Part shown: positions 9,399 through 62,016 of the stretch, piece after piece | Position numbering within the stretch: the first letter of the stretch is position 1 | Layout: the number at the start of each line of letters is the position of its first letter | DNA from: an uncultured Gemmatimonadota bacterium | GTDB lineage: Bacteria > JAAXHH01 | DNA: 64,000 bases | Direction: 5' to 3' | Assembly (NCBI GenBank): GCA_951812955.1 | Contig: OX638340.1 | Location: 3,680,001-3,744,000, forward strand | Notes under the pieces: generated by a model | The model's database searches: none | Told to the model about the DNA's origin: nothing | The model's input: only the letters and a program-made list of their open reading frames with translations | Made by a program: the position numbers and the translations under genes

Positions 9399-10283
9399 TC
9401 AATTCCGATTGACTACCCAGAGTCCGGCCGCCAGCAGCGCCAGGCCGCCGGTGAGGTACGTGGTCACCTGGTCGCCGAGGATCAGCCAGCTCAGGAGGAC
9501 GCCGAAAAGGGGTGTCGTGAAGAAAAAAGCGCTGATCTGCGTGGCGCTGTGACGCTGCAGCAGCCGTATCCATACGAGAAAGCAGAAACCGGCCACGATG
9601 GCGCCCTGGTACAGCACCGCGGCTACGATGCCAAGGTCTATCGTGACCGGGAGGTGCCATTCGGTCGATATCCAGAGTATGGTGAATATTGGCAGCACGA
9701 CCACCTGTTGCCAGAAGATCACCGCCACGGGGGAGATGCGCCTGACCAGCACCTTGTTGATCATGATCTGGATGGCCAGGCTGACGGAGCTGAGCAGGAC
9801 AAGCACATCGCCCAGGGGTGTCGAAGGACCGCCCGCTTCATCATAAATGGTCAACACCATGCCGCCGCCGGCCAGGACCAGGCCGACAAGCTTCATCGGT
9901 GTCAGGCGATCGCCTGGAATGATGAAATGAGCGATCCCGGCGACGACGAACGGGTAGGTCTGCATAAACAGGACGGCGTGGCTTCCCGAGGTCTGTTCCG
10001 CGCCGATATTCAGGAACAGGATCTGCGCGGCCATGACGAGGGCGGGCACGGCGATGATCAGGCGGTCGCCCCGTGCCACGTAGAGCGAGACGCCGGCCAG
10101 CCGCGTCCACGTGTAGACGCACACCAGGGCTACGCCGAATCGCAAGACCGCCAGGAGGACCGGCGGGATGCCCTCCAGCCCCACTTTTACCGACACGACC
10201 AGGCCGCCCCAGAGCGTACACAGCATCAGTACGAGCAGCACGGGTCTCGTAGTCAGCGGCTGGTTTTCGTCGATATGGCTCAC
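9399..10283 (-). CDS. EamA/DMT family transporter
   Basis: 294 aa with ~10 TM segments and a duplicated EamA-type hydrophobic pattern. Confidence 0.7.
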   Translation of the reverse strand: MSHIDENQPLTTRPVLLVLMLCTLWGGLVVSVKVGLEGIPPVLLAVLRFGVALVCVYTWTRLAGVSLYVARGDRLIIAVPALVMAAQILFLNIGAEQTSGSHAVLFMQTYPFVVAGIAHFIIPGDRLTPMKLVGLVLAGGGMVLTIYDEAGGPSTPLGDVLVLLSSVSLAIQIMINKVLVRRISPVAVIFWQQVVVLPIFTILWISTEWHLPVTIDLGIVAAVLYQGAIVAGFCFLVWIRLLQRHSATQISAFFFTTPLFGVLLSWLILGDQVTTYLTGGLALLAAGLWVVNRN

Positions 10284-10368
10284 CCGGGCCGGCCTTTTGC
10301 GGGAGGTAGACAGCGAGAGGAAACGGCAGGGCGTGATTATACGGCCTCAGAATGCATGGAGGCAATGT

Positions 10369-11418
10369 TTAAGTTCGGGGCCGGGCATCCATGCGCTGGA
10401 AACGCAGGGCCACGTTGACCAGCGCGATCATGACCGGTACTTCAACGAGCGGGCCGATGACGGCCGCGAAGGCCACGCCTGATTCGATGCCGAAGACCGC
10501 CACGGCCACCGCGATGGCCAGTTCGAAGTTATTGCTTGCGGCGGTGAAAGAGAGCGTGGCGTTCTTCGAATAGTCCGCGCCGATCTTCCGTCCCATCCAG
10601 AAGGTGATCAGGAACATGAGCACGAAATAGACCAGGAGGGGCAGGGCGATGCGGATCACGTCCAGTGGGATGGCCACGATCGTGTCGCCCTTCAGGCTGA
10701 ACATGACCACGATGGTGAACAGCAACGCGGCCAGGGTAATGGGGCTGATGCGGGGTATGAAGGCCGTCTCGTACCACGGCCTCCCCTTGATCCGCAGCAG
10801 GATCAGGCGCGTCGCCATGCCGCCGAAGAACGGGATGCCCAGGTAGATCAAAACGCTTTCCGCGATCTGTACGATCGTAACCGGAACGACACTCCCCTCC
10901 AGTCCGAAATAGGGCGGCAGGACCGTAATGAAGACGTAGGCGTACACGCTGTAGAAGAACACCTGGAACAGGCTGTTCAAGGCTACGAGGCCGGCGGCGT
11001 ACTCCGTGTTTCCCTTCGCCAGTTCGTTCCACACGATGACCATGGCGATGCACCGGGCCAGGCCGATCAGGATCAGGCCGGTCATGTATTCGGGATGTCC
11101 GGGCAGGAAGAGCGCCGCGAGACCGAACATCAGTATGGGGCCCACGATCCAGTTCAGGAAAAGGGACGCGCCGAGGATCCGCACGTTTCGGAACACGTCC
11201 CCCAATTCCTCGTACTTCACCTTGGCCAGCGGTGGATACATCATCAGAATGAGCCCGATAGCGATAGGCAGGTTGGTCGTGCCCACCTGTCCCAGCTGGA
11301 TCAGGGCGGGAACCTCCGGCGTCCACACCCCGAGGCCGACGCCCAGGCCCATGGCCAGGAAGATCCACAGGGTCAGGTAACGATCGCGCAACGATAGTCG
11401 TTTCGTCGTGGATTCCAT
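10369..11418 (-). CDS. acr3: Arsenite efflux transporter, ACR3 family
   Basis: 349 aa, ~10 TM, with ACR3-family conserved blocks ([50 protein letters not shown]). Downstream of arsR-arsC. Confidence 0.85.
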
Positions 11419-11480
11419 TTTTACTCTCTGGTTGATTTCCTAAGAGGACCTATGCCTGTCTTGTGCGATGAACCGTATAC

Positions 11481-11614
11481 GCGTCATGATGAACGATATA
11501 GGCGTCATGATGAACGATATAGGCGTCATGATGAACGATATAGGCGTCATGATGAACGATATAGGCGTCATGATGAACGATATAGGCGTCATGATGAACG
11601 ATATAGGCGTCATG
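11481..11614. repeat. Perfect 21-bp tandem repeat x6 (gcgtcatgatgaacgatatag) plus degenerate flanking copies, between arsC and acr3
   Basis: Copies start at 11481, 11502, 11523, 11544, 11565 and 11586. A partial copy sits at 11607 and a degenerate copy at ~11460. The last copy overlaps the arsC stop codon (11610-11612). On the minus (mRNA) strand each unit reads ATGACGCCTATATCGTTCATC, which is M-T-P-I-S-F-I. Confidence 0.95.
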
Positions 11615-12263
11615 CGATCCCGACCCGCTTGAACAGCCAACCCATCTCCCGACTGATCTCCCGGCATCGTTCGTCGTATATGTCAGTCTCCCGGTCCGTT
11701 CCGTCGGAGGACCTCGGATCTTTGTAGGGAATGAGTATACGTTTGTCGGCGCCGTATACCGCGGGACAGTTGCGGTCCGCGTCCGAACAGGTCAGGACCG
11801 CGCAGAAACGGTCCGGGGGGTTCGCGGGATCCAGGAAAGTCTTGGAGAACGCGCGCACCGGGGAAAGTTCTGCCCCGGGATGGACGAGGTAGACCGGGTT
11901 TTCTCCTGTCGAGTTTCGTTCGATCCGAAAACCCGCCCGGACCAGCGCCGATACGGCCCTCGGATCGAAAGCGGAGACTTCGGTGCCGCCCGAGAAGGCG
12001 GATATCATCGGTACGCCGAGAAAGCGCGCCATGGTCTGTGCCCAGATCTGCGCAATCTGACTCCTGCGGGAATTGTGGGTACAGATAAAGGTGAGCCGGG
12101 CCGGTTCGCCGCTTCCGATCTTCGCCGAGGCGTATGCAGCAACGGATTCCAGCTCCTTCCTTCGTTCTGTAGAGATCAGGCTGGATTCCGCCATGCGGGC
12201 CTTGAGATAGCGATGGAGGGCCGGGTACAAGGTGGTACAGGTATCGTGAGGGGGCGGTCTCAT
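11610..12263 (-). CDS. arsC: Arsenate reductase, LMW-PTPase/thioredoxin-coupled ArsC type
   Basis: P-loop CTHNSRRSQ (CX5R) and a C-terminal fold matching LMW-PTP ArsC. Its 4-bp start overlap with the arsR stop suggests translational coupling. Confidence 0.8.
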   Translation of the reverse strand: MRPPPHDTCTTLYPALHRYLKARMAESSLISTERRKELESVAAYASAKIGSGEPARLTFICTHNSRRSQIAQIWAQTMARFLGVPMISAFSGGTEVSAFDPRAVSALVRAGFRIERNSTGENPVYLVHPGAELSPVRAFSKTFLDPANPPDRFCAVLTCSDADRNCPAVYGADKRILIPYKDPRSSDGTDRETDIYDERCREISREMGWLFKRVGIA

Positions 12264-12688
12264 CGCTCCTCCCGCGAAAGCATGGACCGGTCGAAAAAAG
12301 CCGGATCTTCCCGGTCGTCTGCCTGGAGTTGGGCCAAGGAGGGCTGAGGCACGCAGATTTTGCCTTCACCGGCCAGTCCGCGCAACCGGTCCAGGTCCGC
12401 CAGGATCCGTTCGTGTACCTGCCGGGCGGAGACCAGGTAAACCGTCACGTATTTCAGGGCGATGGAAGAGTCTCTGGCCAGCGCGTAGTAGATCCAGACT
12501 CCGTCGCGGCGGCCCGTGAGCAGACCGGACTGCTTGAGCACGGCCAGGTGCCGGGAGATTTTGCCCTGGGGCATATCCAGCACGGCCATGATTTCGCACA
12601 CGCACAGTTCCCGCTCGGTCAGCAGGAACAGGATGCGGAGGCGCGTGGCGTCCGAACAGGCTTTGAATACGGCAAGATCGTTGTCCAA
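12260..12688 (-). CDS. arsR: ArsR/SmtB family metalloregulator
   Basis: MDNDLAVFKACSDATRLRILFLL...ELCVCEI is a wHTH with the ELCVC metal-binding motif. It apparently uses a TTG start and has a C-terminal extension. Confidence 0.85.
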   Translation of the reverse strand: MDNDLAVFKACSDATRLRILFLLTERELCVCEIMAVLDMPQGKISRHLAVLKQSGLLTGRRDGVWIYYALARDSSIALKYVTVYLVSARQVHERILADLDRLRGLAGEGKICVPQPSLAQLQADDREDPAFFDRSMLSREER

Positions 12689-12852
12689 ATTCCTGTCTCC
12701 GATGCTGAAAGAAAGGATTATATCTTCATAAACGAATATACGAATATAGATCTATTTGTCAAGGGAAATGAAGCGATCGGTAATCGCCGGTATCGGTGGA
12801 CACCCGGCAACGCATGTTGTATATTAAGGAAGTCATTTGCGGGATCAACTCG

Positions 12853-30403: not shown

Positions 30404-30448
30404 TCGGTACTTTCTGGCCGTGTTGTAGTCGATACGCGAATTCGCCAG

Positions 30449-30532
30449 CCCCGCCGGGTCGATTCTCCGCCTCGTCAACCCGGTAGTGCGCCCCGCCGGG
30501 TCGATTCTCCGCCTCGTCAACCCGGTAGTGCG
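30449..30532. repeat. Perfect 42-bp tandem duplication (ccccgccgggtcgattctccgcctcgtcaacccggtagtgcg x2)
   Basis: Copy A is 30449-30490 and copy B is 30491-30532. It lies in the intergenic space between the DapA-like gene stop (30557) and the isomerase start (~30403). Confidence 0.9.
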
Positions 30533-30556
30533 GTCCGCCCTGCCCGGCCGATTTAA

Positions 30557-31465
30557 CTATAGCATGTCGCGGCCGGTAAGAAACGCCTTGAGCTGCTCCA
30601 TCTCTTCGTCCGTAAGATCGGGCAGGGGGCTTCTCCGCCAGCGGCCGCAGATTCCCGCCAGTTCCAGGACGGCGTGCTGGGCTGCGTCCCCGCCGGCCGG
30701 AAAGGCGCTGTACAGGTAATCGAACAATGGCATGTCGTAGCGCGCGATGATGTCTACGGCCGAATCGAGGTCTTTTTTCTCAATGGCGGACGAGTAGGCG
30801 CGGGCTACTTCGGGCTTGAACTTGATGAAGGTGGACATGTACCCATCGCAGCCGTAGGGCAGCATGTCCATGTGGGTCTGCTTCTGGCCGCCCGCGAAGA
30901 TCACCCATTTTTCGTGGGCTCTAACACAGGCACCCCGCGCGAAATCCGGGCCGAAGTCTTCCTTGAATCCCACGACCCCGGGCACCTCGTCCAGGAGCCG
31001 TTCGACCGTTTCGAGCGCGCCCCGGACGCCCACGCTCACCAGCCCGGCGCTCAGGATGAACGCCGGAAGGGCCTGCGACACCGCGCCGTAATACGCCACG
31101 AGCCCATCCACCGTCATGCCGCGGTCGGGAGGCGCCACGATCAACGCGTCCGCTCCGCAGTCCCGGGCGTACTCCGCGAAGCCCGCGGTCTGTTTCGTGG
31201 ACCAGAACCCCGCGCTCGCGATGAACAGCGCCCGTCCGTTGACGACGCGGGCGGTAAACTCCGTCATCTCGGCGATCTCCGCCTCGGTCAGCAACGAATA
31301 GAGACTGTCCCCCGGGGTGAACAGTACGGTTCCCGCACCGGAATCGATGCAGAAATCCACGAACCGGCGTAACCCGGCGTAATCGATGCCGTCATGCTCG
31401 AGAAAAGGCGTGTTGATCGAGGCGACCGGGCCGGCCAGGTGGTGACGGAAACGGTCTGTATCCAT
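30557..31465 (-). CDS. Dihydrodipicolinate synthase/N-acetylneuraminate lyase family (DapA-like) enzyme
   Basis: Class I aldolase DapA-family fold pattern (GTVLFTPGDSLYSLL...). Start was chosen at MDTDRF, abutting the upstream GFO stop. Confidence 0.65.
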   Translation of the reverse strand: MDTDRFRHHLAGPVASINTPFLEHDGIDYAGLRRFVDFCIDSGAGTVLFTPGDSLYSLLTEAEIAEMTEFTARVVNGRALFIASAGFWSTKQTAGFAEYARDCGADALIVAPPDRGMTVDGLVAYYGAVSQALPAFILSAGLVSVGVRGALETVERLLDEVPGVVGFKEDFGPDFARGACVRAHEKWVIFAGGQKQTHMDMLPYGCDGYMSTFIKFKPEVARAYSSAIEKKDLDSAVDIIARYDMPLFDYLYSAFPAGGDAAQHAVLELAGICGRWRRSPLPDLTDEEMEQLKAFLTGRDML

Positions 31466-31466
31466 C

Positions 31467-32567
31467 CTATGTCCGCCCTTCAGCTGACCAGGAGTCGAAG
31501 GGGTTGCCGTTTTCAGCGAGGGGAAAAGCGACCCGCGCACCCGTGATGTGGGAAAGATGCGCGCCCATGGCCATCTCGATATGTCGGCGGGCCGTGCGCG
31601 CATGGCAAAGTTCGTATTCGGGTTCCCTGCCCTCGATGAGATCCATCATGGACCTCGCCATGCGGTGATGGGCGTTGATCCATTTCTGCCCGCCCGAAAC
31701 CTGTTCGTGGGCGAGCACTTCCCATCGATCGTCGTCGAAGGGCCGCGGGTTCGAGTGGGGATGGAAATAGATATCCGGACCATCCTGCGTGGGGCCGGGC
31801 AGGATGAGCGTCCCGGCGGTCCCGTGGATATCGATGCGATAGGGATTCTCGATACCGTCACCCGCGAAGGATTCGAACTCAGCGTTGAATCCGTCGAACT
31901 GGTAATGCGCCCATATGCCGTTTCCCGCGGAGGTGCCCATGCCGAACAGGCCTTCCTTCCGGTCGATCGGTCCGGCCGTCCGGCCGTCCTGCGTGATGAT
32001 CGCCTGGCACCACGACGGTTCGCCGAAAAGCTGCCACAGGAAATCGAAGAAATGGGGGTAGAGATCGATAAACCACTGGTCTCCCCCGTTTTCGCCGCCG
32101 AAACCATACATGCGCGCCCAGCGCGGCTCCCCGATCCCTCCGTCCCGGATCATCGGGATGGCCTGGCGCTGGATTTCAGGCCGTCCCCGCCAGGGGTGGG
32201 CCATGATCAGCAGGACGCCTGCCTTGTCGCAGGCCTCCACCATGGTATCTACTTCGGCCGGGGTCCGCGCCAGTGGCTTTTCCGCATACACGTGGACGCC
32301 CAGTTCGGCCGCGGCCAGTACCATGGCGAGGTGGTTGCTCATCTCGTGGGTGGCCAGGACGACGATGTCGAGCTTCTCGTTCTCCAGCATCTCCGTGTAC
32401 CGGGCGTACCCCTTCTTCGCGCCGGTCCGTTGCAAGGCGGCCAGCCTTCCCTCTTCGACCGGATCGGCGAGTGCGGAGATCTCGGCGCCTTCCACGCCCA
32501 CGAATGCCTGGTCCAGAGAATGTCCATAGTCTCCGCAGCCGGTGTGCCCGATTATACCGATTTTCAA
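31467..32567 (-). CDS. Gfo/Idh/MocA family oxidoreductase
   Basis: MKIGIIGHTGCGDYGHS...EKP Rossmann N-domain plus the GFO C-domain. Confidence 0.8.
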   Translation of the reverse strand: MKIGIIGHTGCGDYGHSLDQAFVGVEGAEISALADPVEEGRLAALQRTGAKKGYARYTEMLENEKLDIVVLATHEMSNHLAMVLAAAELGVHVYAEKPLARTPAEVDTMVEACDKAGVLLIMAHPWRGRPEIQRQAIPMIRDGGIGEPRWARMYGFGGENGGDQWFIDLYPHFFDFLWQLFGEPSWCQAIITQDGRTAGPIDRKEGLFGMGTSAGNGIWAHYQFDGFNAEFESFAGDGIENPYRIDIHGTAGTLILPGPTQDGPDIYFHPHSNPRPFDDDRWEVLAHEQVSGGQKWINAHHRMARSMMDLIEGREPEYELCHARTARRHIEMAMGAHLSHITGARVAFPLAENGNPFDSWSAEGRT

Positions 32568-40583: not shown

Positions 40584-40784
40584 TTAACCGCCCGCAACCG
40601 CTCGAATCACTTCGACCACGTCATCGTCGGATAGCATTGCCGTCCCGTGATCCTTCCTCGGGACGACCGCTCCGTTCAGGGCCACTGCGGTCCCTTCGGA
40701 AGGCACGCCAAGCTCTTTCAGCAGGTCGGCGATGCTCGTGTCGCGGGGCAGATCCCGGGTTGTCCCGTTAACTGTCATGTTCAT
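40584..40784 (-). CDS. thiS: Sulfur carrier protein ThiS
   Basis: 66 aa ending in the GG C-terminus (VIRAVAGG), between thiO and thiG. Confidence 0.8.
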
Positions 40785-41922
40785 CGTTCGTCTCTCCGGT
40801 TCGAGCGGCGTAGAACCGATCGGGCAGAAAGGGCCGCATGATAGGGGGAACCCGATCGTGCAGGATTGCCTCGGCGATCAGGTCTCCTGTGAGCGGTGCA
40901 AGCAATATGCCGTTACGGCCGTGCCCGGATGCCGCGTATAGGCCGGGCGTACCCATGGCGCCAAGCACGGGCCATCCGTCCCGCGCCACCGGCCGCAGTC
41001 CCGACCAGGTGGAATCCAGCGGCCAGGATTTCAGACCGGGCGCAAGTTCGAGCGCGCTACGGAACAACTGCATGACTCCACCCAAAGTGACTTCGTCTCG
41101 AAACCCGGCTTCCTCCACGGTAGCGCCGATGATCAGCCGTCCGTCCGAACGGGGAACCAGGTATGCGCCGCCGGTGTATATCGTGTGCTTGAATGGTGTC
41201 GCCGCGCCCGTCCGCAGTGCGAGTATCTGGCCGCGCACCGGCCTAATGGGGATTCGGTGTGCGGCCGGGATGCCTTCCAGGTAGCGGGCCCGGCAGCCCA
41301 TGGCGTTTACTACCGTTGGCGTGTTCCACAGGCCGTCCGTTGTATCGACCCCGGCGACGCGATTTCCGTCCAGTACGATTTTCCGTGCGGTGACGCCTTC
41401 ACGGATTACGCCGCCGTTTAGACGAACGGATTGCGCCAGGGCCGCAACGACGTCCCTGTTTTCTACCTGGTGATCGTCCGGGTAGCGTAGCGCCATGCGG
41501 ATGCGGTTGGAAAGATCCGGCTCGAGTCGCCTCGCCTCCCGGACGGTCAGTTTCTCAACGGATACGCCATTCCGCAGGTGCCGTTCATACCGGGTCTCGA
41601 GCCGTGCCTGTTCACCGCCGCTCAACGCCGGATAGATCATCCCCGTGGCGTTGTAGTCTATCGGGCGGCCGGTCTCTTCCCGGAGGGATTCGACGAAACC
41701 GGCATAGCGCTCCAGTCCGGCCCTGCAAAGGATGAAATAAGGATCGGGCTCATCGAATTCGCAGTGCGGCGCCAGCATGCCCGCGGCGGCCCACGACGCG
41801 CCACGGCCGGTTCGGTGCTGCTCGAGTACCGTGACAGCGCTTCCGGATTGACACAGCTGTCTCGCTATGGCCAGACCGATGATCCCGCCGCCGATGACCA
41901 CTATGTCCGATCGTTGCGCCAC
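40768..41922 (-). CDS. thiO: Glycine oxidase (FAD-dependent)
   Basis: DIVVIGGGIIGLAIA dinucleotide-binding motif and DAO-family length. First gene of the thiOSGE operon. Confidence 0.85.
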   Translation of the reverse strand: MAQRSDIVVIGGGIIGLAIARQLCQSGSAVTVLEQHRTGRGASWAAAGMLAPHCEFDEPDPYFILCRAGLERYAGFVESLREETGRPIDYNATGMIYPALSGGEQARLETRYERHLRNGVSVEKLTVREARRLEPDLSNRIRMALRYPDDHQVENRDVVAALAQSVRLNGGVIREGVTARKIVLDGNRVAGVDTTDGLWNTPTVVNAMGCRARYLEGIPAAHRIPIRPVRGQILALRTGAATPFKHTIYTGGAYLVPRSDGRLIIGATVEEAGFRDEVTLGGVMQLFRSALELAPGLKSWPLDSTWSGLRPVARDGWPVLGAMGTPGLYAASGHGRNGILLAPLTGDLIAEAILHDRVPPIMRPFLPDRFYAARTGETNDEHDS

Positions 41923-41944: not shown

Positions 41945-42062
41945 GGAAAACAAAAAGCCGTTTCGATCGGAAACGGCTTTGTCCGGCCGTTTCCCTACGC
42001 TGGTATAACCCAGGTCAGGTTCAAAGGGTCGTGATTCTCAGGCCCGCGAGGAGCCGCCCCTA
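41945..42062 (-). promoter_or_regulatory. TPP (THI-box) riboswitch with intrinsic terminator expression platform
   Basis: The minus-strand RNA reads GGGGCGGCUCCUCGCGGGCCUGAGAAUCACGACCCUUUGAACCUGACCUGGGUUAUACCAGCGUAGGGAAACGG. It carries the invariant CUGAGA, ACCCUUUGAACCUGA and CCAGCGUAGGGAA boxes. It is followed by the hairpin AAAGCCGUUUCCGAUCGAAACGGCUUUUUGUUUU, ~20 nt before the thiO start. Confidence 0.9.
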
Positions 42063-42148
42063 ACGGTAATATGGCAGTTTAAGAAAAGCGGATAGAGGTG
42101 TCAACGAATTCTTCCCGGTATGGATGCCCGGTGAGGTGGCCCGGCGGA

Positions 42149-60738: not shown

Positions 60739-62016
60739 CTACCGGCGAGTGTACCGCGCCAGGAGACTCGATATCTCCCGGGTCAGTTCGCTCGTCTTGT
60801 CGTCGCCGCACGAAAGCGTGCTTTCCAGCGCGTCCGCCAGGCCGGCGATCTCATCGCAAAAGGCCTTGTGTTCCTGGGCATGTCTTGCCAGGGCCGCGCG
60901 CAGATCAGCGAGGATTTCCACCGTCTTCGCACCGGGATCGACGGGATCCATCGTGGATGACGCTTGTTCTTCGTCTTCCCCTGCTTCCGCGTCATCCTCG
61001 GTTGCTCGTGCTGCCGTGTCTTCCATATCTTCCCCTGCTTCCGCGTCATCCTCGGTTGCTCGTGCAGATGCGTCTACCTCGTCTACCTGCGCCACTGCGT
61101 CATGCTCGTCTACCCCAGCCACCACGTCTTCCTCCGAAGCCCCGGTCTCATCACCCTCCGGGAATGCTTGCCCCTCGTCGGCGTATCCTATTGCGGATTC
61201 CGGGGCGGACACGGATTCCTGTCCTGGCTCGTCCGTCAAATCGGTCCGGTCGCCGGGTGTACCCTGACCTGCCGGTTCGGCGACGCCGCTGAACGAATAC
61301 GTATCAACGGCCTCCCGTGCATATAAGTCTCCGTCGACTTCCTCTGGCGCTTCATCCGCAATATCACCGTTGGTCACTACTCCGGCGGCCTCCACGGTCT
61401 CTGCAGTTTCCGCCTCGTCCCGCACTTCCTCGGCTTCGATTTCCTCTGGCGCTTCATCCGCAATATCACCGTTGGTCACTACTCCGGCGGCCTCCACGGT
61501 CTCTGCAGTTTCCGCCTCGTCCCGCACTTCCTCGGCTTCGATTTCCTCTGGCGCTTCATCCGCAATATCACCGTTGGTCACTACTCCGGCGGCCTCCACG
61601 GTCTCTGCAGTTTCCGCCTCGTCCCGCGTTACGCTGGCTTCGACTTCCCCAGGCGTTTCATCCGCGATATCAGTTCGTGTTTCCACTTCGGCGGCGTCCG
61701 CGGTCTCTGCAGTTTCCGCCTCGTCCCGGCCGTATACGGTTGCCGTCTCGTCGACAGACTCGGTTAAAGGCTCGGTATGGTCCGGCGCCCGGCCGTATTG
61801 CCGGCGCGGCGTACCGTTGGAATCCGGACGCTCCGGCGCCGGTTCGCCGGTCCGGGAATGCATAAACAGATCGATGGACTCCCTGGACACGAAGTATCTG
61901 CCGTCCTCCAGGTAGTACTCCAGCTTTCCTTCTACGCACATTCGCGTCACCTGGTCGGGCAACTGCTTCATCAAGTCCGCAGTTTCCAGCAAGGTCATCC
62001 ACTGCGTTTCCGCCAT
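60739..62016 (-). CDS. Excisionase-type HTH domain protein with long acidic tandem-repeat region
   Basis: The N-terminus (WMTLLETADLMKQLPDQVTRMCVEGKLEYYLEDGRYFVSRESIDLFM) fits the HTH_17/excisionase pattern. Then ~300 aa that are >35% D/E, containing 34-aa x3(+1) repeats EAETAETVEAAGVVTNGDIADEAPEEIEAEEVRD and 18-aa x2 repeats ARATEDDAEAGED. There is a helical C-terminal ~60 aa. Confidence 0.65.
   Translation of the reverse strand: MAETQWMTLLETADLMKQLPDQVTRMCVEGKLEYYLEDGRYFVSRESIDLFMHSRTGEPAPERPDSNGTPRRQYGRAPDHTEPLTESVDETATVYGRDEAETAETADAAEVETRTDIADETPGEVEASVTRDEAETAETVEAAGVVTNGDIADEAPEEIEAEEVRDEAETAETVEAAGVVTNGDIADEAPEEIEAEEVRDEAETAETVEAAGVVTNGDIADEAPEEVDGDLYAREAVDTYSFSGVAEPAGQGTPGDRTDLTDEPGQESVSAPESAIGYADEGQAFPEGDETGASEEDVVAGVDEHDAVAQVDEVDASARATEDDAEAGEDMEDTAARATEDDAEAGEDEEQASSTMDPVDPGAKTVEILADLRAALARHAQEHKAFCDEIAGLADALESTLSCGDDKTSELTREISSLLARYTRR
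60968..61066. repeat. 54-bp tandem repeat x2 within acidic protein gene
   Basis: The core cttcccctgcttccgcgtcatcctcggttgctcgtgc occurs at ~60975 and ~61029. Confidence 0.8.
61339..61741. repeat. 102-bp tandem repeat, 3 near-perfect copies plus 1 degenerate copy, within acidic protein gene
   Basis: The unit ttcctctggcgcttcatccgcaatatcaccgttggtcactactccggcggcctccacggtctctgcagtttccgcctcgtcccgcacttcctcggcttcgat starts at 61339, 61441 and 61543. A degenerate copy occupies ~61645-61741. Confidence 0.9.

Follow-up and report, generated by a model that had tools for sequence, protein, structure and literature searches.

A variable-number tandem repeat at the arsC-acr3 junction of the ars operon of sponge-associated Gemmatimonadota

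The ars genes and the tandem array

We analysed a tandem repeat array between an arsC-like gene and acr3 in a 64,000-nt stretch, hereafter the window, of the genome of an uncultured Gemmatimonadota bacterium (GTDB lineage JAAXHH01; assembly GCA_951812955.1, contig OX638340.1, positions 3,680,001 to 3,744,000 of the forward strand). Coordinates below are those of the window. The locus comprises three co-oriented minus-strand genes, arsR, arsC-like and acr3 (Table 1). An original prediction, made from the nucleotide sequence without database searches, had named these genes, and the identities of arsR and acr3 were confirmed by scores above the cutoffs of NF033788 and TIGR00832, respectively. The arsC label stood in part. 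Residues C61, C159 and C166 of the encoded protein align with the catalytic triad C10, C82 and C89 of Bacillus subtilis ArsC (PDB 1JL3), but the protein reached only 40 bits against arsC_pI258_fam, far below the equivalog cutoff of 174.3, and 21.6 bits against LMWPc (cutoff 23.2), and its homologues are named 'protein-tyrosine-phosphatase' at NCBI. We tentatively regard it as an arsenate reductase. Its N-terminal extension of ~55 aa is kept in all homologues (213–250 aa). arsR and arsC share 4 nt, the stop of the one and the start of the other, in the same ATGA overlap that joins arsC to the array.

Tandem Repeats Finder reported a repeat at 11467–11614 (period 21, 7.0 copies, 97% matches, score 275). 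A pattern search agreed, resolving six exact minus-strand copies of ATGACGCCTATATCGTTCATC followed by a seventh unit, ATGACGCGTATACGGTTCATC, with three mismatches to it, as had been predicted for an array that begins in the end of arsC. No unit match arose in 100 shuffles, and the same search found no further copies in the window besides the array. The original prediction had also described the entire intergenic space as filled and the operon as interrupted. The array does lie in the spacer, but it occupies only ~147 of the 191 nt, and the rest is taken up by a degenerate pseudo-unit and by the conserved 21-nt block 5' of acr3; the array lies between cistrons and disrupts no gene. Its G+C content is 43% against a background of 55–69%, and its mRNA would be C-rich and G-poor (29% C versus 14% G).

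The arsC stop TGA (11612–11610) and the ATG of the first unit (11613–11611) overlap as ATGA (11613–11610) in the context GCATGA. From this ATG, 4 nt within arsC, a frame runs through the array to a stop at 11442–11440, 21 nt 5' of the acr3 ATG and in the acr3 frame. Reading it confirmed the six in-frame MTPISFI heptads that had been predicted. Four of the six reading frames are open throughout the array. Read-through of the arsC TGA, for example as selenocysteine, was considered from sequence alone and rejected, since each unit in the window adds a further TGA in the arsC frame and the frame downstream is not conserved among the alleles compared.

Table 1. Features of the ars operon and its tandem array in the window.
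Feature	Position	Strand	Basis or remark
acr3, ACR3-family arsenite efflux transporter, 349 aa	10369..11418	-	TIGR00832 equivalog, 450.4 bits (cutoff 282.8)
Conserved block GAAATCAACCAGAGAGTAAAA 5' of the acr3 start	11419..11439	-	Conserved across alleles; presumed ribosome-binding region
Open frame across the array, 57 codons, MTPISFI x6 + MTRIRFIAQDRHRSS, stop TAG	11440..11613	-	Translation putative
Degenerate pseudo-unit GCACAAGACAGGCATAGGTCCTCT	11443..11466	-	Sequence reading; follows the array in all close relatives
Degenerate terminal unit, B type, ATGACGCGTATACGGTTCATC	11467..11487	-	Older unit type, common to all relatives
Six identical 21-bp A units, ATGACGCCTATATCGTTCATC	11488..11613	-	Tandem Repeats Finder, pattern search
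arsC-like gene, LMW (low-molecular-weight)-phosphatase-fold protein, 217 aa, N-terminal extension ~55 aa	11610..12263	-	Tentative arsenate reductase
arsR, ArsR/SmtB metalloregulator, 142 aa	12260..12688	-	NF033788, 91.3 bits (cutoff 55)
Promoter-like site of the ars operon, TTGACA-16-TATATT	12735..12762	-	11/12 consensus matches

Copy-number alleles in related genomes

Relatives of the locus were gathered by searches with the unit sequence (L001 and L005) and, for the further loci, via homologues of the arsC-like protein, the members of their clusters and the contigs encoding them. Together these yielded 12 orthologous alleles from sponge-associated Gemmatimonadota, in which the unit is present at the arsC-acr3 junction in 1, 2, 3 or 7 copies (Table 2). 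They share a common neighbourhood of an S1/P1 nuclease and a sulfatase gene and, in divergent orientation, arsR, arsC-like, acr3, an EamA transporter and an amidohydrolase. Nucleotide identity to the window is 79–95% for arsC, 88–99% for arsR and 88–99% for acr3; among the relatives, arsC diverges faster than the other two genes. All alleles end in the degenerate pseudo-unit, whose likeness to the unit was judged by eye and is unscored, and the conserved block 5' of the acr3 start. The alleles of the window, L017/L018 and L015 differ only in the number of A units, with six, two and one identical copies; the clade of the window thus carries the perfect 21-bp unit once, twice or six times, in each case followed by one older unit. 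No allele longer than that of the window was found.

Table 2. Alleles of the arsC-acr3 junction in the window and in related loci (L numbers).
Locus	Units	Period (bp)	Spacer (nt)
Window	6 A + B'	21	191
L017, L018 (two independent samples)	2 A + B, 3 units	21	107
L015 (2.47-Mb contig), L001/L005	A + B, 2 units	21	86
L008, L016	2 units	23	88–89
L009	3 units	23	111
L014	3 units (third minus 2 nt and its ATGA)	23	109
L010 (3.9-Mb contig)	2 units	23	87
L006/L007 (3.9-Mb contig)	1 unit	none	63
L011/L012	1 unit	none	66
L013 (3.97-Mb contig)	1 unit	none	65

The junction array is a genuine variable-number tandem repeat (VNTR), because the number of units varies at one orthologous locus with conserved flanks. 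The units lie head to tail and fall within the 10–100 bp usual for such loci, copy number varies between strains, and alleles differ by whole units. A locus of strain-variable copy number had been among the roles considered in the original prediction, together with recent expansion by replication slippage, and the orthologous junctions with 1, 2, 3 or 7 units bear out the former and support the latter. L001 is the locus in the Gemmatimonadetes metagenome-assembled genome APA_bin_41, with two units at the arsC-acr3 junction, and a matching two-unit allele lies on an 82-kb metagenome contig, MKWU01000410 (L005); the parent accession MKWU00000000 is cited in Mediterranean sponge metagenome papers, one of them an Illumina and PacBio study of Aplysina aerophoba. 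The ArsC sequence of the window recurs without a single difference (217/217 positions) in a protein recorded on a 3,813,436-bp contig. One- and two-unit alleles are found on contigs of 2.5–3.9 Mb, and for the seven-unit allele this protein-identical 3.81-Mb contig is the counterpart.

The 21-mer was found at this junction only. An exact search of 185,579 species-representative genomes placed it in a single position, the arsC-acr3 junction of APA_bin_41; metagenome contigs, scanned with a degenerate form of the unit, gave the L005 allele and three isolated chance hits; and all 29 matches of a unit profile in 129 kb of related loci fell at the arsC-acr3 junction. A generic dispersed repeat, which the original prediction had named as the contrary outcome, was therefore rejected on the evidence of the window, the 129 kb and the genome and metagenome collections. 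A loose motif allowing three mismatches had given two extra hits against 0.9 expected, but the profile search matched the junction only. Iterons were rejected as well, because the array is flanked by arsC and acr3, within a chromosomal neighbourhood that is conserved, and the array locus had no plasmid match. In a full-text literature search, no paper turned up that describes such an array at an arsC-acr3 junction.

Unit structure, origin and reading frames

Comparison of the alleles indicates an ancestral unit of 23 bp with the consensus ATGACGCC-N5-GGTTCATCGC, and at least one unit of ~23 bp lies directly 3' of arsC in every relative examined. At the start of every unit the arsC end, (GC)ATGA, is repeated, and the unit end CGGTTCATCGCATGA resembles the arsC end CGGGTCGGGATCGCATGA by reading, a resemblance that is unscored. 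Given these likenesses at both its start and its end, the unit may plausibly have arisen when the arsC 3' end was duplicated in tandem. In the clade of the window the junction GC was lost, giving the 21-bp unit, and this is the variant that expanded.

The difference in period has consequences for the reading frame. Units of 23 bp form mini open reading frames (mini-ORFs) of eight codons (MTPxWFIA), with the TGA of each overlapping the ATG of the next unit. The MTPISFI heptad, which the original prediction had put forward as a feature of the array, is thus not conserved, as the 23-bp period of the sister lineages breaks the frame between units. What does recur is the layout of starts and stops: 12 of 12 alleles have a start codon, ATG or GTG, on top of the arsC stop, and in each of them the array is tiled by open frames. 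The resulting spacer peptides differ among alleles, and the last stop lies 21–42 nt 5' of acr3 or, in L009, the frame enters acr3. In this last allele (1074–1186) the TAG of the spacer ORF is replaced by CAG and a TTG-initiated frame of the third unit runs in frame into acr3; if used, it would give an acr3 product with ~23 extra residues.

Among 17 distinct units, variation is highest at positions 10–13 (about 0.9–1.4 bits) and low in the arms. It follows no third-codon-position pattern, and positions 3, 15 and 21 are invariant, which argues against a conserved peptide. An ORF starting in the pseudo-unit (ATGACAGGC...) ends at a TAA 2 nt 5' of the acr3 ATG in L001, L005 and L009. It was considered as a coupling ORF and rejected, its ATG being missing in the window, L015, L017, L008 and L016.

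A probable slippage-driven minisatellite in the ars operon spacer

We think it fairly probable that the array is a locus-specific minisatellite, seeded by the end of arsC, driven by slippage and tolerated within the transcribed spacer of the ars operon of these sponge-associated Gemmatimonadota. The last ~20 nt of arsC, stop included, would have been tandemly duplicated to give the first unit, and slipped-strand mispairing at replication would subsequently have added and removed units; the six perfect copies would then reflect a recent expansion. No promoter-like or terminator-like site was found inside the array, from which we infer that it is co-transcribed with arsR, arsC and acr3. The 4-nt start/stop overlap at the arsC end, kept in each allele, may allow ribosomes leaving arsC to restart and translate the spacer, halting 21 nt 5' of the acr3 AUG. 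Restart and translation of this kind would explain how a spacer of 191 nt, as compared with 63–111 nt elsewhere, is tolerated in the operon, in line with what has been proposed for mycobacterial interspersed repetitive units. As acr3 keeps its own conserved ribosome-binding block, which would add to this tolerance, arsenite efflux is probably little affected by copy number, and the spacer peptide appears not to be functional.

Several observations weigh against this interpretation. No lineage has lost the unit altogether, and the arms ATGACGCC and GGTTCATCGC vary less than the central 5 nt, which could reflect a sequence-specific constraint rather than neutrality. The contrast between arms and centre is weak evidence, as the units do not vary independently of each other and the genomes have diverged little (88–99% identity in acr3). 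The tiling by mini-ORFs follows automatically from duplication of the ATGA at 23 or 21 bp and so cannot count as separate evidence that the spacer is translated. Between the last stop and the acr3 AUG lie 21–42 nt (with read-through in L009), more than the classical spacing for translational coupling, and the six-copy allele was found in the window only.

Alternative explanations

The strongest alternative retains the stop-start layout but assigns it a selected function: mini-ORFs would carry ribosomes from arsC to acr3 as a relay, and copy number would tune the arsC:acr3 ratio or exclude Rho. We regard this as unlikely, while giving it more weight than the explanations that follow. The start codon on the arsC stop in 12 of 12 alleles and the open frames tiling every array are as such a relay would have them, and the arsR-arsC junction has an ATGA overlap too. 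The C-rich, G-poor and weakly structured array RNA could plausibly let Rho enter if ribosomes did not translate it. Furthermore, the Shine-Dalgarno-like block before acr3 is weaker in the array clade (CCAGAGAGTAAAA) than in the single-unit alleles L011 and L013 (CCGGAGAGGAAAC); however, L007 combines a weak block with just one unit. The tiling is, as noted above, a by-product of copying a unit that bears ATGA, and neither the peptide nor the stop position is conserved. If the relay did operate, the array would be a contingency locus giving sponge-symbiont populations a heritable and reversible dial for arsenite efflux, and exclusion of Rho could set operon polarity too. An effect on the mRNA or on coupling between arsC and acr3 had also been among the roles considered in the original prediction, and the array may have such an effect.

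An iterated protein-binding array, one of the roles suggested in the original prediction, would bind a dimeric protein, whether ArsR or some other regulator, at sites that a 21-bp spacing puts on one helix face. The unit is an imperfect palindrome (ATGAcGCC...GGtTCAT) with arms better conserved than the centre, and the arms within a unit pair in 89.5% of cells as compared with 27–44% for slid partners, a control that is biased because the hairpin structure was taken from the unit consensus itself. The unit of the window and the arsR operator region also have TATA-TCGTTCAT in common. This best local alignment (TATA-TCGTTCAT versus TATATTCGTTTAT) scored 17, which was equalled by 6% of shuffles and is not significant, and it hinges on a TATAT core, which units elsewhere among the lineages do not have. 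The inverted repeat at the arsR promoter, approximately TATATyCTTATATTCGwTTATwAGGATATA, is strongly conserved in eight relatives and is likely the ArsR operator; it is a different inverted repeat, unlike the array unit. With a site spacing that shifts between 21 and 23 bp, no promoter-like site in the array and no promoter in or after it for such a protein to regulate, we consider a binding array improbable.

A processed or stabilising RNA element of the type of repetitive extragenic palindromic sequences (REPs) or bacterial interspersed mosaic elements (BIMEs), in which unit hairpins would protect the upstream arsC message or serve as a processing site, is very improbable and already largely refuted. 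A 7-bp stem with one bulge can form in each unit, and a location just past a stop codon within an operon is typical of REP elements (PMC3184786). Yet the folding energies of nine spacer alleles did not differ from those of shuffles (z from -1.8 to +1.6; window z = 0.07), compensatory changes in the unit hairpin were absent, with 11 of 15 departures from the commonest pair breaking the pairing, and the array had no Rfam match at the gathering score or even at E = 1. That the unit is not dispersed adds to this.

Equally remote is the explanation, the other contrary outcome named in the original prediction, that the copy number of the window is an assembly artefact and the true allele has one or two perfect units like those of the relatives. 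Short-read assemblers struggle with perfect 126-bp tandem arrays, and the six-copy allele is known from one assembly, that of the window. Assemblers, however, usually collapse such arrays and do not expand them, and the ArsC-identical protein on the 3,813,436-bp contig suggests that the window derives from a long-read assembly, which makes an artefact in copy number unlikely. Alleles with one and two perfect units moreover recur in independent assemblies, so that copy number differs among assemblies regardless of the window.

Least credible of all is that the array encodes a repetitive peptide, (MTPISFI)n, as a gene in its own right, such as a multi-core precursor or small membrane peptide; this is already largely refuted by the 23-bp alleles, in which the frame is interrupted every eight codons. 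The 57-codon frame with its ATG over the arsC stop invites this interpretation, but it coexists with three other open frames of the six, shows neither a third-codon-position bias nor variation at unit positions 3, 15 and 21, and matched no protein family above threshold (SUR7, E = 0.006, 16.6 bits, cutoff 29.6), and gene calls in the relatives place nothing in the spacer.

Promoters and other elements in the window

At 12700–12770 the promoter-like TTGACA-16-TATATT of the ars operon overlaps the conserved inverted repeat and an 8-bp x 2.6 direct repeat, ATATACGA. A promoter-like site for the divergent sulfatase gene lies at 12797–12825(+). Directly past the acr3 stop, at 10336–10365(-), is a further promoter-like site, TTGCCT-18-TATAAT, ahead of the EamA-family transporter gene (9399–10283), which may therefore have a transcript of its own, apart from that of the ars genes. 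The EamA gene is syntenic with the ars genes in all relatives despite its own promoter-like site.

The window contains other repeats. A 42-bp x 2.2 tandem repeat (30448–30539, 96% matches) occupies a same-strand intercistronic spacer, starting 18 nt past the stop of a 348-aa ORF at 30557–31603(-); its unit, CGCACTACCGGGTTGACGAGGCGGAGAATCGACCCGGCGGGG, holds the inverted repeat CCGGGT...ACCCGG. A 102-bp x 3.9 coding repeat (61334–61728, 92% matches) encodes 34-aa repeats (EAEEVRDEAETAETVEAAGVVTNGDIADEAPEEI) in a very acidic 425-aa ORF at 60739–62016(-), which also includes a 54-bp x 2.3 repeat at 60987–61108. A thiamine pyrophosphate (TPP) riboswitch (RF00059, 69.9 bits, gathering score 54.3) is located at 41975–42071(-), just 5' of a 384-aa ORF at 40768–41922(-).

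Significance and comparison with known systems

As a short, PCR-sized and highly polymorphic strain marker, the array could serve to tell apart strains of an uncultivated Gemmatimonadota sponge symbiont that live side by side. Beyond the mycobacteria, it also offers a natural instance of an operon that tolerates a tandem repeat, a tolerance that would follow from the stop-start overlap carried by each unit. Were copy number to alter acr3 expression, a metal-resistance pump would here be tuned in a simple way by a repeat, although nothing that we found requires this or points to a dedicated regulatory device.

Intergenic tandem repeats that vary in copy number are familiar from bacteria. With bacterial VNTRs and minisatellites the array shares head-to-tail units (21–23 bp, 1–7 copies), conserved flanks and identical internal with degenerate terminal copies; it differs in its position within an arsenic resistance operon of an uncultivated sponge symbiont and in a unit that bears the upstream stop and an overlapping start.

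The closest parallel in layout is with mycobacterial interspersed repetitive units (MIRUs), which have units of 40–100 bp at 40–50 loci and ORFs overlapping the adjacent genes (PMC3184786), and which, like short ORFs, have been reviewed as elements that 'deliver' ribosomes at a spacing of -4 nt, coupling being weaker at positive spacing (PMC12548453). As in the senX3-regX3 spacer, the units are intercistronic, in tandem, in gene orientation and variable in copy number, with the start of the ORF over the upstream stop (PMC3184786; PMC12548453). In contrast to MIRUs, which are apparently mobile, the 21–23 bp unit is confined to this locus, and its last ORF stops 21–42 nt before acr3 and lacks the downstream overlap, only L009 reading in. 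The array unit is thus MIRU-like in layout and stands outside the MIRU family. REPs and BIMEs are likewise short imperfect palindromes past stop codons between co-transcribed genes, sometimes clustered, but REPs are dispersed in hundreds and form stable G+C-rich hairpins, whereas this unit is restricted to a single locus, has a G+C content of 43% and gives no folding signal.

Characterised ars operons (arsR-arsC-acr3 or arsRBC) agree with the present one in gene content, gene order and an inverted-repeat operator at the ArsR promoter. The operon described here is set apart from them by its long (217 aa), divergent, LMW-phosphatase-like arsC and, as far as the full-text search showed, by the tandem array that precedes acr3.

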